DNA of 64,000 nt, taken from Acidobacteriota bacterium. Its GTDB lineage: Bacteria; Acidobacteriota; UBA890; WLXD01. Location: assembly GCA_963666055.2 (NCBI GenBank), contig CAXWPH010000011.1, positions 192,001 through 256,000 on the forward strand. Direction: 5' to 3'. A program made the position numbers and the translations under genes. The notes beneath the pieces are model-generated. The model saw nothing but the letters and a program-made list of their open reading frames with translations. It made no database searches and was not told the origin of the DNA. Below, one piece after another: positions 50,737-58,748 of the stretch (its first letter is position 1; each line of letters begins with the position of its first letter).

Positions 50737-51549
50737 TCAGTTGAGGCTAAAGGACTCGCCGAGGTAGATCTTGCGGACCTGCGGATCGCGCTCGAGATCT
50801 CCAGGGGCACCGGAGCGGAATATCTGGCCATCCGTGAGGATGTAGGCGCGATCGGTGATGCGCAGCGTCTCGCGCACGTTGTGATCGGTTACCAGCACGC
50901 CGATCCCGCGCATCCGCAGCTCGCGTACGAGCTTCTGGATATCGCTGATGGCTATCGGATCGATGCCCGTGAACGGCTCGTCAAGAAGCAGGAAGGACGG
51001 ATTGGTCGTCAGGGCACGAGCAATCTCGACCCGCCGGCGCTCGCCACCCGAAAGAGTGTAGGCTCGATGGTCTGCGAGATGGGTGAGCCCGAGATCGGCC
51101 AGCAACACCTTGCAACGGCGCTGGCGCTCCTGGCGGGTAAGTCGCAGGCCCTCGAGGATCGCCATGAGGTTTTCCTCTACGGTGAGGCGTCGGAACACGG
51201 ACGGCTCCTGCGGCAGGTACGAGATCCCATGGCGACGCGCCCGGATGTACATAGGCTCGCGGGTAATCTCGATGTCAGCAGCGTAGATTCGTCCCTCGTC
51301 GGGACGAACCAGCCCGACCACCATGTAGAACGTGGTCGTCTTTCCGGCACCGTTGGGGCCGAGCAGGCCGACGACCTCACCCTGAGAGATGCTGAAGTTG
51401 ATCCCGTCGACCACCCGGCGACCGCCGTACGCCTTGACCAGACCGTCAACCCGTAGAGTCCGCGCCGGCAGGTCCGGCTCCGTGCCCGGCAGCGGCCCTG
51501 CACCGCTCACCGACACCGCCGGCGGCGAGAGATTCGATCGTTCATGCAT
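50737..51549 (-). CDS. lptB: LPS export ABC transporter ATPase LptB
   Basis: [54 protein letters not shown]; start at 51549 supported by TGGTACGAT 6 nt upstream. Confidence 0.96.
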
Positions 51550-51599
51550 GCAGATATCGTACCAATGTGGCAGCAACTCGGTCAACGTGACAAGAGACC

Positions 51600-51830
51600 G
51601 CCGATTCGTTGATTTTCTGTGTGTTTAAACGAACTTACGCTCGTCGATCGAATCTTTTGAGCTCCGATATCGGAGACTCGCATACCTGTGCTGCATACTC
51701 AGAGATGACTTATATTAAGTTATACAGATGTATATAGGCTAATACTATTGTTTAACAATGAATTAAAGATTTTAGTTGATTTATTATATGGTTTACTGCT
51801 TTTATAGTCACTGAGATCCAAGAACAAGCC
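51600..51830. promoter_or_regulatory. AT-rich divergent promoter region with several dyads
   Basis: 51721-51780 has only 13 G+C in 60 nt; palindromes CTCCGATATCGGAG (51662-75), TATACA-GA-TGTATA (51721-34), ATTGTT-T-AACAAT (51747-59); TATAGT at 51803-08. Confidence 0.6.
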
Positions 51831-51848
51831 CCCGCCGGACAAGGCCTA

Positions 51849-52289
51849 ATGAAGCTCGGACAGATACTTCTATTCCGCAAGCTGATCGGGCGCGATCAGC
51901 TTCGTGAAGCGCTGCGGCGCCAACGCGCTACGGGTCGCCCAGTCGGCGAGATCCTGCTGCGTATGGGCGTAATCTCCCGCGCCAATATCGTCGAAGCGCT
52001 GCTCGCACAGCCGAAAGCGTCGGTGAACGCCGCCGCGTTGGCGAAGGTGAGTGCAGAGGTCGTTCATGCAGTTCCACGTCCCCTAGCAGAACGGCACTGC
52101 TGCCTCGGGCTGGTACGCAGCGACGGGCATCTGGTACTTGCAATGGTGGACCCTCTGGATCAGTCGGTGATCGCCGAGGTCGAGGCGGCAACGCAGCTCT
52201 GCGTCCTACCCGTAGCAGCATCTGGCGGTGATCTACGGGACGCAATCGCAACCAAGTACACGAGCTCGCAAGCGTGCGGCGCAGACTAG
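51849..52289 (+). CDS. Stand-alone MshEN / T2SSE_N domain protein (putative c-di-GMP receptor)
   Basis: Tandem motifs KLGQILL...QL..AL..Q and VGEILL..G......EAL..Q, then AMVDPLD; no ATPase domain. Confidence 0.85.
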   Translation: MKLGQILLFRKLIGRDQLREALRRQRATGRPVGEILLRMGVISRANIVEALLAQPKASVNAAALAKVSAEVVHAVPRPLAERHCCLGLVRSDGHLVLAMVDPLDQSVIAEVEAATQLCVLPVAASGGDLRDAIATKYTSSQACGAD

Positions 52290-52314
52290 GCACCTCCCGG
52301 GGCTGAGGCCGACA

Positions 52315-54462
52315 ATGCGCACCGACAGCATCCAAACGGACGCGGCTGAGCCTGACGGAGCCCTGGCGGAAGCGCTACAGCGGCTCGACATCGCCGTACA
52401 AACAAGCCGCATGTACCCCGCATCGGCGCCGACGGTCGTACAGTCCGTCGAAGTGGCTCATGCTTCGCTGGTGGCCGCGATAGGCGACGAGCCGGTTTCA
52501 CTCCAGATCCGACCCCAAGAGATCTCGTGGGTCGACCGCCTCACCAAGGAGACTCAATCCGCCATTCTCGAGCGCCTCGCAGAACAGCTTCACCGGCGGC
52601 ACGTTGCACGCCTCACTCTAGGCCCCGGCCTGTCTCTGGAGTCGGTCCTGACGCTGATTGGCGCCCTGGCGCAACGGGAATTCGAGCATAACGACGACGC
52701 CCTGTTGCTCGGAACGATCCCTGGGATCCGCGCGGATCCGCTGGAGCTGCAGGGCTTGGTCGACGGAGGCTCGCAACGCTTCGACCCGGACGACGTCTGG
52801 GGCCAGATCCTGGCTGAGTTCGGCAGCGGCACCGACGATAGCCCCGACTGGGAAGGCATCGCTTTGGATGCAGAGCGTGCGCGGGGCTTTCTCCGGTGGG
52901 CTCTGGATCCCGAGCATCAGCCGGCCGCGATGGCTCACCATTCCCAGACAGACGGTTTCACGCTGCTCGTCGAGCAGATCGCCGGGCGCGCGCCTCAGGT
53001 CGAGAACCTCATCGAAACGCTGGTCGAGGCCTCCACAAGCCTGTTCGACGAGCTCGACCTAGAGGCCTGGATCGACATCCTGACCGACCCGTTGCCGCTG
53101 CAGACTGACGAAGCGAGCGCCCCAGTCGATCTCACGAAACGCCTCGCGAAAGCACTCTCCAGCGGTCAAGTGATGCGCCTAGTGAACTACACCATGAGCT
53201 CGCGGTCGCGAGCTACGCCGCGACTCTACAAGTTCCTGTCGCGGGTCGTTGCCAGCCGCCCAGAGCGATCGGAGATCGCCAACCGTGCGGTACAGATGAC
53301 CAACAGCTCTCCGGTCGAGCTCGCCAAGGCATGGCCCGATCTAATCGAGGTCATGACAGGCGAGAACCCGGATCCTTTCCTGCACCGCGACTATCGAGCG
53401 TTGCTGGAGGACGACTCTGAGATCGGCAAGTCGGCATGGAACAGCGCCAAGGTCCGGGCGCGCTTCGGCGAGCTGGACGGCGACTCCCTGCGTGTACGAA
53501 AGACGCGGATCGCCCACTCGTTGTTGGTGAGCAATCGCGAGTCCCGCTTCTACGAGCACCTGGTGGATGCCCTCGGGAGCTCCCTCGAGACCATCGTGCG
53601 AATGGGCGAGCTGACGCTGCTGGAGGAGATCCTGCTCACGCTGGCGCAACATATCAGTGATGCCGACCGACCCGGCGCAGAGCGCCAGCTAGCCCATCAA
53701 GCGCTGCTTGGCATGCAACAGCGGGAGCTCATCGTGCTGCTCGTCCAGCGCCTCGCCCGGGCCGGCGGGGACGGCTTCCACGCCCTCTGGAGAATAGTGG
53801 AGCATCTGGGACAGCAGTTCCTGCCCGAATTGCTCCAGGCGCTTGCGACAACTAGGTCGCCCTCATACCGGCACCATCTACTACGCATCCTGCGAGGAGT
53901 CAGCGAGCTGCCGCTAGAGGAGTTCGGAGAGTCGCTCAACGACCGCCGCACACCGTATGTACGGGATTTCGTGTGGTTGCTGGCGGAGCTGCGCCGGCCG
54001 GAGCTGGCCCCGCTGCTGCAGGCTGCGGCAACCCACGCCGATGCCAAAGTCCGCAGCGAGGCGCTCGGCGGCTTCGCCTTCCTGTCCGACGAGCCATCGG
54101 AGCTTGCACTCCTTGAAGCCCTCGCAGACACCTCTCTCGAGGTGCGCGTGGCAGCGTTGCGGGCGTTCCGACAACGGTTCGCGAGCCGCTCGCAAGAGCG
54201 CCTGCTGGGCTATTTGTCGCTGCCCAACTGGAACGGCGAAAATACGCGGCTGATTGCCGCAGCCCTCAGTGTGCTCGGTCAGATCGGCGACGAAGCGGCT
54301 CTGGCGGCCATCGTGCCGTTGGCGCGGCGGACTTGGATATTCCGACGGCGTAGACGCACGGTGACCCAGGCGGCTATCGGCGCGGTGCAGAGCATCAACC
54401 AACGTGCGCAGCAGCGGAGCGCAGCAGCGCCACAACCGCAGGAAACTACCCGTGCCGCCTGA
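52315..54462 (+). CDS. Large helical protein with C-terminal HEAT repeats
   Basis: LND.R.PYVR, H.D.KVR.EAL, LAD.SLEVR.AAL repeats; N-terminal MYP..AP domain. Confidence 0.75.
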   Translation: MRTDSIQTDAAEPDGALAEALQRLDIAVQTSRMYPASAPTVVQSVEVAHASLVAAIGDEPVSLQIRPQEISWVDRLTKETQSAILERLAEQLHRRHVARLTLGPGLSLESVLTLIGALAQREFEHNDDALLLGTIPGIRADPLELQGLVDGGSQRFDPDDVWGQILAEFGSGTDDSPDWEGIALDAERARGFLRWALDPEHQPAAMAHHSQTDGFTLLVEQIAGRAPQVENLIETLVEASTSLFDELDLEAWIDILTDPLPLQTDEASAPVDLTKRLAKALSSGQVMRLVNYTMSSRSRATPRLYKFLSRVVASRPERSEIANRAVQMTNSSPVELAKAWPDLIEVMTGENPDPFLHRDYRALLEDDSEIGKSAWNSAKVRARFGELDGDSLRVRKTRIAHSLLVSNRESRFYEHLVDALGSSLETIVRMGELTLLEEILLTLAQHISDADRPGAERQLAHQALLGMQQRELIVLLVQRLARAGGDGFHALWRIVEHLGQQFLPELLQALATTRSPSYRHHLLRILRGVSELPLEEFGESLNDRRTPYVRDFVWLLAELRRPELAPLLQAAATHADAKVRSEALGGFAFLSDEPSELALLEALADTSLEVRVAALRAFRQRFASRSQERLLGYLSLPNWNGENTRLIAAALSVLGQIGDEAALAAIVPLARRTWIFRRRRRTVTQAAIGAVQSINQRAQQRSAAAPQPQETTRAA

Positions 54463-55822
54463 GCGCTGTTCCCGAGAAGAGGTTCTGATAGATCTCGGCC
54501 GACATCTGCTGTGCGCCCAGCAGAGCCAAGCCATCTACCCAACAAACCACCCGCGCGCGGTCACCGCGCTCCGCGACCTTTACCTTCGTACGGTTGAGTT
54601 GCTGACCGAAGAGGGTGATCTGCGGTTCGCGCTGGCCGACCGCACGTTCATCTTCGACAACGAGGTCCTGCCGATCAACGGCGAGGTACTCGAAGGATTG
54701 GCGGAGCTGTTCTGTCGACGGGGCATCGGCCGCATGGCAGTGTCACGCGGGCTACGCCGGTGGGAGATTACGTCCCTTGTGCAGGCACTCAACGCGCAGA
54801 CCGAAGCCGACGAAGGCATCGAAGCTCTCCTTGCACGGGAGGGCGTCCAGCACGTCGAGGCAGCGCCACTAACCGGCCGAACCGGTGACCCGCGCGGTGG
54901 GTCGGCATCGAGCGGCCCGACGTTGTCGCGGGCCTGGGAGGTCTACTCGGCCAGCCTGGAGAACATGCGCCAGCTCAAGAGCCGCCTCAGCGACGGTATC
55001 GACGCCGACGCGATTGCCCAGGCTGGCTGTCTGGCCGGTGACTTGGTCGACGTCGTGCAAGCGCAGCCACAAGCGTTCTCGCTGCTGTACGCACTCAAGA
55101 ACCACGACGACTATTCGTACACGCACTCCCTGAACGTGGCGATGCTCTCCTTGACGATCGCCCGGTGGCTGGAGCTGCCGCACGAGATGCTCACGCAAGT
55201 CGCCCTCGCAGCTATTCTGCACGACATCGGCAAGGTGATGGTGCCCGACGGCGTGCTCAACAAGCCGGGAAAGCTAACCGACGAAGAGTGGGCGGTCATG
55301 CAGCGCCACGGCGACGACGGAGCGCGCCTGTTGCTCGAATCGCCGGTCAACGATCTGGTCTTCGTGGTTGCCTACGAGCACCAGCTGGCCTACGACGAGC
55401 GGCACACCGACTTCGGCCGGTGGCCGCTGCACCTGGTATCCGAGCTGGTGTGCCTAGCCGATGTATACGACGCGCTGCGGTCGGTTCGACCGTACCGCGA
55501 CTCGCTGCCACCCGACGTCGCCATGAGAATCATGGAGGAGGACGCCGAGACTAAGTTCGATGCCGACTTGTTCGCGGGATTCCGGCGCATGCTGGGCTAC
55601 TATCCTCCCGGAACTTGCTTGAGGCTCAGCGATGGTCGCACGGCGGTCGCGCGCACCACCAACCTCCTCGATCCGGAGCACCCGCGAGTGCTGGTTGTCC
55701 GCACCGTCGACGGCGACGAGATAGAGCCGCCGGAGGCTCTCGACCTGGCGCAAGCCGAGATCGACGTTGAGGAGGTCGCGGACCCGGAGCTCCTAGACAT
55801 CGACCCCGTCGACTATCTCTGA
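54452..55822 (+). CDS. HD-GYP-like phosphohydrolase with degenerate GYP motif
   Basis: HDDYSYTHSLNV, LHDIGK, LNKPGKLTDEEW.VMQRH, ADVYDALRS.RPYR; GTG start overlaps the HEAT gene end. Confidence 0.88.
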   Translation: MPPERCSREEVLIDLGRHLLCAQQSQAIYPTNHPRAVTALRDLYLRTVELLTEEGDLRFALADRTFIFDNEVLPINGEVLEGLAELFCRRGIGRMAVSRGLRRWEITSLVQALNAQTEADEGIEALLAREGVQHVEAAPLTGRTGDPRGGSASSGPTLSRAWEVYSASLENMRQLKSRLSDGIDADAIAQAGCLAGDLVDVVQAQPQAFSLLYALKNHDDYSYTHSLNVAMLSLTIARWLELPHEMLTQVALAAILHDIGKVMVPDGVLNKPGKLTDEEWAVMQRHGDDGARLLLESPVNDLVFVVAYEHQLAYDERHTDFGRWPLHLVSELVCLADVYDALRSVRPYRDSLPPDVAMRIMEEDAETKFDADLFAGFRRMLGYYPPGTCLRLSDGRTAVARTTNLLDPEHPRVLVVRTVDGDEIEPPEALDLAQAEIDVEEVADPELLDIDPVDYL

Positions 55823-58182: not shown

Positions 58183-58464
58183 TCAGCGGACGGGACGGTG
58201 CCGGTCGAATTCCTCGCGGTAGTACTGCCGGTAGAGAATCTCCCATTCCCTTCCCCCCTCGGGAATGTCGCGCTTCTGCGAGGCGATCTTCTGCTGCACC
58301 TTACGGTCGATGTACTCGTCGCGCCGAAGCTCCTCCTGGAAGATCTCGACGATCGCCAGCCGTACGGTGTTCGGCTCGCGGCGCAGCTCCACGGACTCAT
58401 CCTCCCCTAGTGCATCGACCAGGAGGCGTGACAAATGGTTGACCTTGGCGCGAGATAAACGCAT
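58183..58464 (-). CDS. DUF507-family protein
   Basis: MRLSR.KVNHLS...ID..V..KI.SQKRDIPEG..EW.ILY..YY.EE. Confidence 0.85.
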   Translation of the reverse strand: MRLSRAKVNHLSRLLVDALGEDESVELRREPNTVRLAIVEIFQEELRRDEYIDRKVQQKIASQKRDIPEGGREWEILYRQYYREEFDRHRPVR

Positions 58465-58469
58465 ATCGA

Positions 58470-58748
58470 TCAGAGGATGATGTTGCGTTCCCTGGCGAGC
58501 TTCGCCTTGATCACCTTGAACATCTCGTGAAGCTCGACATCGGCGCGCCGGATCTGGTCATTGTAGGTGCGCATGATTTCGCGTACCTCGTCGTTGAGAC
58601 GATCCTCGACCATCAACTCGTCGACGACGATCCCGCTCATGCGGCCTTCTGTTTCTGCGGCGTTTTCGACGCGGATCAACCCGAGTTTGCCGAGGTCGCG
58701 GACGACTCGGAAGGCGATCACGTCGATCTGCTCCTGAGTCATGCGCAT
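58470..58748 (-). CDS. DUF507-family protein
   Basis: EL.VEDRLNDEVREI...EMFK..K.KLARER..IL; tandem with its paralogue. Confidence 0.85.
   Translation of the reverse strand: MRMTQEQIDVIAFRVVRDLGKLGLIRVENAAETEGRMSGIVVDELMVEDRLNDEVREIMRTYNDQIRRADVELHEMFKVIKAKLARERNIIL

Follow-up and report, generated by a model that had tools for sequence, protein, structure and literature searches.

A stand-alone MshEN protein beside a HEAT-HD gene pair between lptCA and lptB of an Acidobacteriota bacterium: a candidate cyclic-di-GMP signalling unit

Why would three genes of apparent signalling type lie between two genes for lipopolysaccharide (LPS) transport, and what could they do together? The question is raised by a stretch of 64,000 nucleotides (nt) from an Acidobacteriota bacterium, positions 192,001-256,000 of contig CAXWPH010000011.1 (GCA_963666055.2), which we call the window and whose genome we label G000. 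An earlier note on this DNA had described three close + strand genes behind the most AT-rich stretch of the window, between an LptC/LptA-like gene and lptB-rpoN. The open reading frames (ORFs), their spacing and the base composition bear this out: genes 1 and 2 are 25 nt apart, genes 2 and 3 overlap by 11 nt, and the GC content falls to 0.33 over 200 nt at 51611 versus 0.648 for the whole window. Gene 1 encodes a stand-alone MshEN protein, gene 2 a HEAT-repeat protein (the HEAT protein) and gene 3 a protein with the HD-GYP fold but no GYP motif (the HD protein). Our analysis shows that the trio is a conserved operon, and it is likely a signalling unit that responds to cyclic-di-GMP (c-di-GMP), a reading in which our confidence stays just short of even. 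Going by sequence comparison, the trio is better seen as a widespread scaffold-hydrolase pair that gained an MshE-type ATPase in one order, the ATPase being later cut to its sensor.

The 146-residue product of gene 1 consists entirely of one complete MshEN domain. Its MshEN_N part, a four-helix c-di-GMP motif at residues 2-54, matches the full NCBIfam model NF053729 'c-di-GMP_motif' (model positions 1-53, 55.8 bits, cut-off 38), and in the MshEN_C subdomain that follows, the Pfam family MshEN (PF05157) is matched at residues 66-134 with 44.1 bits (E-value 2e-11, cut-off 23.1). The ORF stops at residue 146, so that a T2SSE ATPase domain is not present after MshEN, and this end coincides with the end of VcMshEN1-145, the crystallised construct of Vibrio cholerae MshE (PMC5013675). 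PMC12943098 and PMC5013675 define MshEN by two motifs of 24 residues and a 5-residue linker between them, and this spacing is exact in the window protein (residues 2-25, linker 26-30, residues 31-54). By our mapping, 14 of the 16 key VcMshEN positions given in the part of PMC5013675 at hand are kept, including L10, G11, I19, L25, L29 and Q32 (window L3, G4, L12, L18, L22 and Q25) and L39, G40, G47, L54, L58, Q61 and D108 (window V32, G33, G40, I47, L51, Q54 and D101), and R9 is replaced by Lys. Motif II fits the relaxed motif of the same paper. In the window's lineage the protein is under strong purifying selection and is not decaying, as the ratio of nonsynonymous to synonymous substitution rates (dN/dS) is 0.058-0.082 among three intact members of the genus (dS ~1-2); the ratio for the HEAT protein is 0.17-0.22. 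Intact MshEN proteins are encoded in six genomes from four genera of the family, with the window counted.

The free MshEN goes back to the N-terminal part of an MshE/PilB-type ATPase, as comparison of the related loci shows. The arrangement lptB<- ->MshEN-HEAT-HD<-lptCA is found in all seven fetched loci of the family, which add four further genera, and in the window. Five loci of a sister family within this order have at the MshEN position a gene that encodes 659-675 residues. The one in locus L030 has MshEN, T2SSE (1.5e-125) and a double zinc ribbon (DZR); behind it come, in this order, a gene for a 264-residue protein with a DnaJ domain, the HEAT gene and the HD gene. The window MshEN aligns with the ATPase N-termini of the sister-family cluster at 35-38% identity and 88-99 bits, and with those of the PilB-like ATPases of its own genome at 59-64 bits only. 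No orthologue of the sister family's DnaJ-domain gene was found in the window genome. The simplest reading is that the ancestor of the window's family lost ~2.5 kb, namely the ATPase domain and the DnaJ gene. The earlier note had proposed a free receptor; the stand-alone MshEN protein with its c-di-GMP motif agrees with this, but it is the remnant of the full ATPase that the sister family keeps together with the DnaJ gene.

Judging from the distribution of the loci, the + strand genes entered this site in an ancestor shared by two families of one order. Among 18 outgroup loci of the phylum, 14 have an ORF with LptD_N and/or LptC immediately before lptB in the same orientation, and in the other four no such ORF was detected among the ORFs scanned. 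Since lptCA adjoins lptB in those 14 loci, lptCA-lptB-rpoN is contiguous ancestrally, in line with the earlier note. Its idea of an inserted module is thereby upheld as to the insertion, which is not recent, because two families share it. In the sister-family locus L093:3437-6682 (genome G011) the DnaJ gene stands alone at the lptB/lptCA site, and the HEAT-HD pair is elsewhere (L024). Lying between lptCA and lptB is not in itself a sign that the module takes part in LPS transport.

The product of gene 2 is an alpha-solenoid according to its predicted structure. It has an unnamed N-terminal domain (about residues 14-142), a helical middle and C-terminal HEAT repeats, with HEAT_2 matched at 35.9 bits (9e-9, cut-off 27.7). 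The AlphaFold model, with a mean confidence (pLDDT) of 78.9, is all helical over residues 158-703, and Foldseek matches it to PP2A PR65, importin-alpha and designed alphaRep proteins, which agrees with the scaffold role that had been proposed for it. A homologue search with the protein itself returned eight close relatives only, a single-protein scan for related loci found one close relative and four unrelated HD-GYP proteins, and in the ESM Atlas the matches were 'hypothetical protein' clusters only, with Gemmatimonadota the commonest taxon. The HEAT profile has matches at 1e-10 in 149 of 301 genomes of the phylum, many of them over the HEAT repeats only, and the matched proteins in many families of the phylum have ~750-800 residues.

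The conserved core of the module is the HEAT-HD gene pair, which is phylum-wide and occurs without MshEN. Among 21 loci of other families, an HD-type gene comes directly after the HEAT gene in 13; in the other eight it does not, one of these being at a contig end. The sister family also has paralogous HEAT-HD pairs at sites not next to lptB (L024, L025, L027 and L031). The module had been called self-contained, and the three genes do occur together in all seven family loci, but the pair without MshEN in the 13 other loci means that they do not form a fixed trio.

The HD protein consists of an unnamed N-terminal domain (residues 8-138), an HD-GYP-like domain (152-388) and a small C-terminal beta domain (389-456). 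The HD-GYP fold is present: structural comparison of residues 152-388 scored 19.4 with Bd1817 (root mean square deviation 3.1, 224 residues aligned), 15.3 with DvhD, 14.3 with PmGH and 14.2 with PA4781. The best sequence matches in the PDB are PmGH (4.8e-22) and the cyclic GMP-AMP (cGAMP) enzyme V-cGAP3 (5z7c, 2.5e-21). The GYP motif is absent, EHQLAYDERHTD being aligned with EHHERWDGTGYP of PmGH. The residues H225, H257, D258, H286, E309, H310, D337, D340, K261 and K271 are invariant in 43 family sequences, and this set holds six of the seven binuclear metal ligands as well as the equivalent (K271) of Lys235, described in the available text of 10.1101/2021.11.05.467447 as a residue contacting c-di-GMP. 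The equivalent of Glu185, the would-be ligand of a third metal, is Tyr. The clade descends from true HD-GYP proteins, as distant members with the same N-terminal domain (P0045, P0047, P0050 and P0117, four of the 22 rows shown) still have 'SGYP'.

The unnamed N-terminal domain (N-domain) of ~130 residues that genes 2 and 3 share is the most useful lead from this analysis. BLASTP aligns residues 26-131 of the HEAT protein with 37-143 of the HD protein (28% identity, E-value 2e-4), and hhalign aligns the two N-domains over 135 columns with 98.3% probability (E-value 1.8e-14). Both AlphaFold models have the same topology here, with two long helices joined via a 'YPxxHP/YPxSSP' loop, three strands, a helix, a strand, helices and a strand. 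Such alignments indicate that the two N-domains are homologous. Pfam gave no consistent family for any of 14 N-domain sequences at E-values up to 1. In G000 the HEAT and HD genes alone match the N-domain profile, and among 1.84 billion representative proteins it has 6,669 matches at E <=1e-3 and 1,912 at E <=1e-10. We scanned 85 of the 150 best matches with Pfam, mostly the longer ones, the 65 left out being nearly all shorter than 350 residues. HD/HD_5 domains were found in 24 of them, HEAT repeats only in 23, and GGDEF-AAA_16 in 19 proteins of ~1,000-1,450 residues, 16 of which also have HEAT_2; four have PAS and/or histidine-kinase domains, two have TPR matches that are probably spurious, and 13 have no Pfam family. 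P0182, P0187, P0188, P0190 and others have ~1,400 residues in the order GGDEF, AAA_16, two N-domains and HEAT repeats. In P0231, P0247 and P0276 the N-domain heads PAS-HisKA-HATPase_c histidine kinases, and because of this it behaves like a general input or interaction domain of signalling proteins. The NCBIfam MshEN model matched none of 23 N-domain proteins with N-terminal extensions. We found no published description of the trio or of the N-domain; Table 3 or Figure S1 of 10.1101/2021.11.05.467447, which lie outside the available part of that source, may list the architecture.

We propose the following mechanism for the trio. The MshEN protein would bind c-di-GMP via its two 24-residue motifs, as their sequences suggest, and the scaffold and the hydrolase would associate via their paralogous N-domains. 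The ligand-bound MshEN could then dock on the HEAT-HD pair through its MshEN_C subdomain, which is of T2SSE_N1 type, and the docked MshEN would tune a metal-dependent phosphohydrolase whose substrate may be c-di-GMP or a related nucleotide. The putative link to c-di-GMP is drawn by analogy from fusion proteins, i.e. FrgA and MXAN_2809 of the available part of PMC5013675 and the N-domain-HEAT proteins with GGDEF, together with the five GGDEF genes of the genome. These five genes and the other T2SSE ATPase genes are all on other contigs, and no GGDEF gene or PilB-like ATPase gene was found on this contig, in agreement with the earlier remark that no cyclase or pilus genes lie nearby. We also speculate, with considerable doubt, that the N-domain couples the parts of a widespread, so far undescribed system of 'scaffolded c-di-GMP turnover', linking a HEAT protein to an HD-GYP-type hydrolase from the adjacent gene in trans and to a GGDEF-AAA cyclase in cis; the pair of this order would have captured an MshE-type ATPase, and one family would have dropped the motor and kept the sensor as a free receptor feeding back on the hydrolase.

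A number of observations weigh against the c-di-GMP reading. Motif I of the window MshEN has Lys at the Gly18 turn (motif position 10), a residue outside the G, A or S that PMC5013675 allows there in its relaxed motif; the position is non-Gly in the whole clade, the full-length ATPases of the sister family included. Motif II begins with Pro where VcMshEN has Arg38, a replacement that the relaxed motif permits, and R38G is among the changes that the same source lists for the non-binding XpsE. One genus of the family (L021) has Gly40 -> Ala and Gln61 -> Pro in motif II. The HD protein departs from the defining motif HHExh[D/N]GxGYP (10.1101/2021.11.05.467447, as far as available) at six of the nine specified positions; the three that remain are the first His, the hydrophobic residue and the Asp. 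In the window Gln takes the place of the second His of HH, and among the 22 rows shown 12 have Gln there and 10 have His. Hydrolysis of c-di-GMP is not assured because of the failed motif and this Gln, and the earlier description of gene 3 as a GYP-less HD-GYP phosphodiesterase is right about the fold and the absent GYP and uncertain as to activity. A missing His need not abolish activity, according to what the same source reports on Lysobacter RpfG. In most lineages the HEAT-HD pair goes without MshEN: none of the 21 loci has an adjoining MshEN gene, only L078 has an ATPase gene, ~7 kb off and on the other strand, and the neighbours of 17 other pairs are heterogeneous and unrelated housekeeping genes, with L073 alone having a REC-EAL gene, at a distance of 4 kb. 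Some close relatives carry lesions, which may include assembly errors (genome G004 also has a split rapZ). The AT-rich region and the first 32 MshEN codons are inverted in L014 (G003); in L016:7461-10201, from the closest relative G002, MshEN has a frameshift near codon 126 and HEAT is split into three ORFs of 182, 260 and 298 residues; and two metagenomic clusters (P0133 and P0134) end after MshEN residue ~88 with an out-of-frame tail.

These points lead to other explanations that have to be weighed. The HEAT-HD pair might serve in signalling or housekeeping without acting on c-di-GMP, in which case the HD protein cleaves some other phosphoester, such as a different cyclic or linear nucleotide, or senses without catalysis, and MshEN is a tolerated or repurposed leftover of the lost ATPase. 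We consider this possible though somewhat unlikely. It would be in keeping with the loss of GYP and of the second His of HHE, with the 16 of 17 other annotated loci where the pair has neither MshEN nor any c-di-GMP gene nearby, with the broken MshEN and HEAT genes in some close relatives, with the cGAMP specificity of the second-best PDB match (5z7c), and with the degenerate HD-GYP proteins HnoD and ECA3548, which the available part of 10.1101/2021.11.05.467447 describes as acting by protein contacts. Yet none of the 43 sequences departs at the six metal ligands or at the Lys235 equivalent, which is unusual for a dead domain; the purifying selection on MshEN, the N-domain fused to GGDEF cyclases in 19 of the 85 scanned proteins and the family members with an intact GYP also speak against this explanation. 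The 146-residue ORF could even be a decaying and functionless fragment of the ATPase gene, as it arose by the ~2.5 kb loss relative to the sister family and has been disrupted independently in close relatives. This has little chance of being right in view of the dN/dS of 0.06-0.08 at dS ~1-2, the conserved binding-motif positions, and the intact frame that ends at the MshEN domain boundary (as marked by the VcMshEN1-145 construct of PMC5013675) in four genera.

The location suggests one more explanation, i.e. that the module regulates the envelope by making LPS transport or the expression of sigma-54 respond to a nucleotide signal via the shared AT-rich divergent region. The position is kept across two families, the AT-rich region is conserved, a promoter-like site on the - strand of the gap faces lptB, and an HD-GYP regulator, DVU2933, is in an operon regulating lpxC according to the accessible part of 10.1101/2021.11.05.467447. 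In the rest of the phylum, however, HEAT-HD lies beside unrelated genes, within the same order it also occurs as paralogues, the site of the sister-family locus L093 has the DnaJ gene alone, and no DNA-binding or Lpt-binding domain was found in the module, so we regard a role in the envelope as improbable. We keep the c-di-GMP-responsive unit as our preferred, if tentative, reading of the trio. The coordinates of the module and its flanks are given in Table 1.

Table 1. Features of the module and its flanking genes, in window coordinates
Feature	Position	Strand	Evidence and remarks
lptB (ABC ATPase)	50737..51585	-	ABC_tran 2.8e-38; left flank, transcription away from the module
AT-rich divergent intergenic region, presumed promoter site	51586..51848	.	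263 nt, lowest GC of the window
Stand-alone MshEN protein, 146 aa	51849..52289	+	Pfam MshEN, NCBIfam NF053729, dN/dS
HEAT scaffold protein, 715 aa, ATG start	52315..54462	+	HEAT_2; database gene call P0121 also 715 aa
HD-GYP-fold protein without GYP, 456 aa	54452..55822	+	HD_5 2e-18, HD 4e-15; database call P0001
LptC/LptA fusion, 768 aa	55835..58141	-	LptD_N 7.7e-13, LptC 2e-4, TIGR04409, TIGR03002; right flank, convergent with the HD gene

The AT-rich core of the intergenic region is kept in five of six intergenic regions of the family, where the minimum GC over 100 nt is 0.30-0.35. An Rfam scan of 51450-52000 matched no RNA family. Ahead of the MshEN gene, scanning for promoters detected no site of sigma-70 type on the + strand, and a search of the gap for sigma-54 patterns gave nothing convincing. 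The best sigma-70-like site in the gap is GTGACT-17-TATAAT (10 of 12 positions, window 51783-51811), on the - strand and directed toward lptB and not toward the MshEN operon. Just upstream of the MshEN start codon, at 51809-51842, one contig of run X4 (depth 7) omits 32 nt and has a single G instead. The inverted segment of L014 (9755-10018) corresponds to window 51640-51945; ~250 bp are inverted, the remaining ORF begins at the equivalent of Met39, and there are no flanking inverted repeats. The inversion gave the idea of an invertible promoter, which we rejected as a switch since no inverted repeats flank the segment and since the contigs of runs X1-X3 have the window orientation over 51342-52700 with zero differences and no strand-changing joints; rare variants are still possible.

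Some further observations concern the genes of the locus and their neighbours. The longest ORF of the HD gene starts at an upstream GTG at 54404 and would encode 472 residues. The HD, lptB and lptCA genes of L016 are intact, and clusters P0126, P0127, P0133 and P0134 hint at similar truncations in other assemblies. On the left, lptB heads lptB-rpoN-hpf-hprK-rapZ, and the adjacency of lptB and rpoN is kept in all related loci; the sister-family loci L019, L026 and L030 have no hpf match between rpoN and hprK, where the window's family has hpf. On the right, the - strand genes beyond the LptC/LptA fusion are a split DUF507 pair and a gene for a GWxTD protein. DUF507 is represented by two adjoining small genes (92 and 93 residues, window 58183-58748) that match the N- and C-terminal halves of the Pfam model, and the split is also kept in relatives. 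LptC and LptA form a single protein of 635-962 residues, its middle region being long, in the window and, among loci L096-L111, in 12 of the 14 outgroup loci with a detectable Lpt ORF beside lptB; L109 has them as two separate ORFs, and L093 does not belong to the outgroup.

If our reading is true, the locus would be a natural case of a secretion-ATPase sensor domain freed as a stand-alone receptor by gene truncation. It would also reveal a conserved two-gene unit, a solenoid scaffold and a GYP-less enzyme of the HD-GYP fold, throughout Acidobacteriota, in which signalling has hardly been studied by experiment. A large domain family without a Pfam model would then tie HEAT scaffolds both to the making (GGDEF) and to the presumed breaking (HD-GYP-like) of the messenger. 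The N-domain could serve as an annotation handle for thousands of hypothetical proteins now named 'HD domain-containing' or 'HEAT repeat', and the trio, being small and expressible, would offer a system for studying how local c-di-GMP signalling complexes assemble.

The HD protein and the HEAT protein both have relatives among known proteins. Bd1817 of Bdellovibrio, an HD-G'Y'P protein without the Tyr (PDB 3tm8), has 16-19% identity to the HD protein, its own N-terminal domain lying outside the alignment; the window protein has lost the whole GxGYP stretch. From the active HD-GYP phosphodiesterases PmGH (4mcw) and PA4781 (4r8z) the HD protein differs by Tyr in place of Glu185, hence no third metal, by Gln in place of the second His, and by the lack of GYP. 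The proteins of ~1,400 residues with GGDEF, AAA_16, two N-domains and HEAT have the same N-domain as the window pair. The C-terminal part of one of them aligns with the window's HEAT region in hhalign (93.9% probability, E-value 1.5e-7, 257 columns), and NCBI gives a protein of its cluster the name 'MAG: diguanylate cyclase [Deltaproteobacteria bacterium]'. They differ in having the cyclase fused in cis and an AAA_16 ATPase, and neither an HD domain nor MshEN.

For the MshEN protein and for the combination of domains we compared the systems described in the available parts of PMC5013675. V. cholerae MshE has the same domain with the same two motifs and linker, at the same length as the crystallised residues 1-145. 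The window protein keeps the residues of the hydrophobic triad, both Gln and the equivalent of Asp108, and it differs from MshE by the lack of a T2SSE ATPase after the domain and by the changes Gly18 -> Lys and Arg38 -> Pro, its binding being a prediction. Domain types that the window has as neighbouring genes are joined in one polypeptide in Myxococcus xanthus, where FrgA is MshEN-UNK-HEAT and MXAN_2809 is MshEN-HD-GYP-REC-DUF4388 (Supplementary Table 4); these are fusions, unlike the separate genes of the window, and the comparison is by domain description. PA3740 of Pseudomonas aeruginosa, with MshEN and a highly diverged T2SSE_N1 but no ATPase domain, is reported to bind c-di-GMP with a KD of ~30 nM (Supplementary Tables 4 and 6). 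It comes from another phylum and another gene context and is likened to the window protein by description only, and by that description its MshEN_C is highly diverged, whereas that of the window matches the Pfam model. It is like the window protein in being a natural MshEN protein without the ATPase domain, and because PA3740 exists, a free MshEN receptor is not unprecedented.

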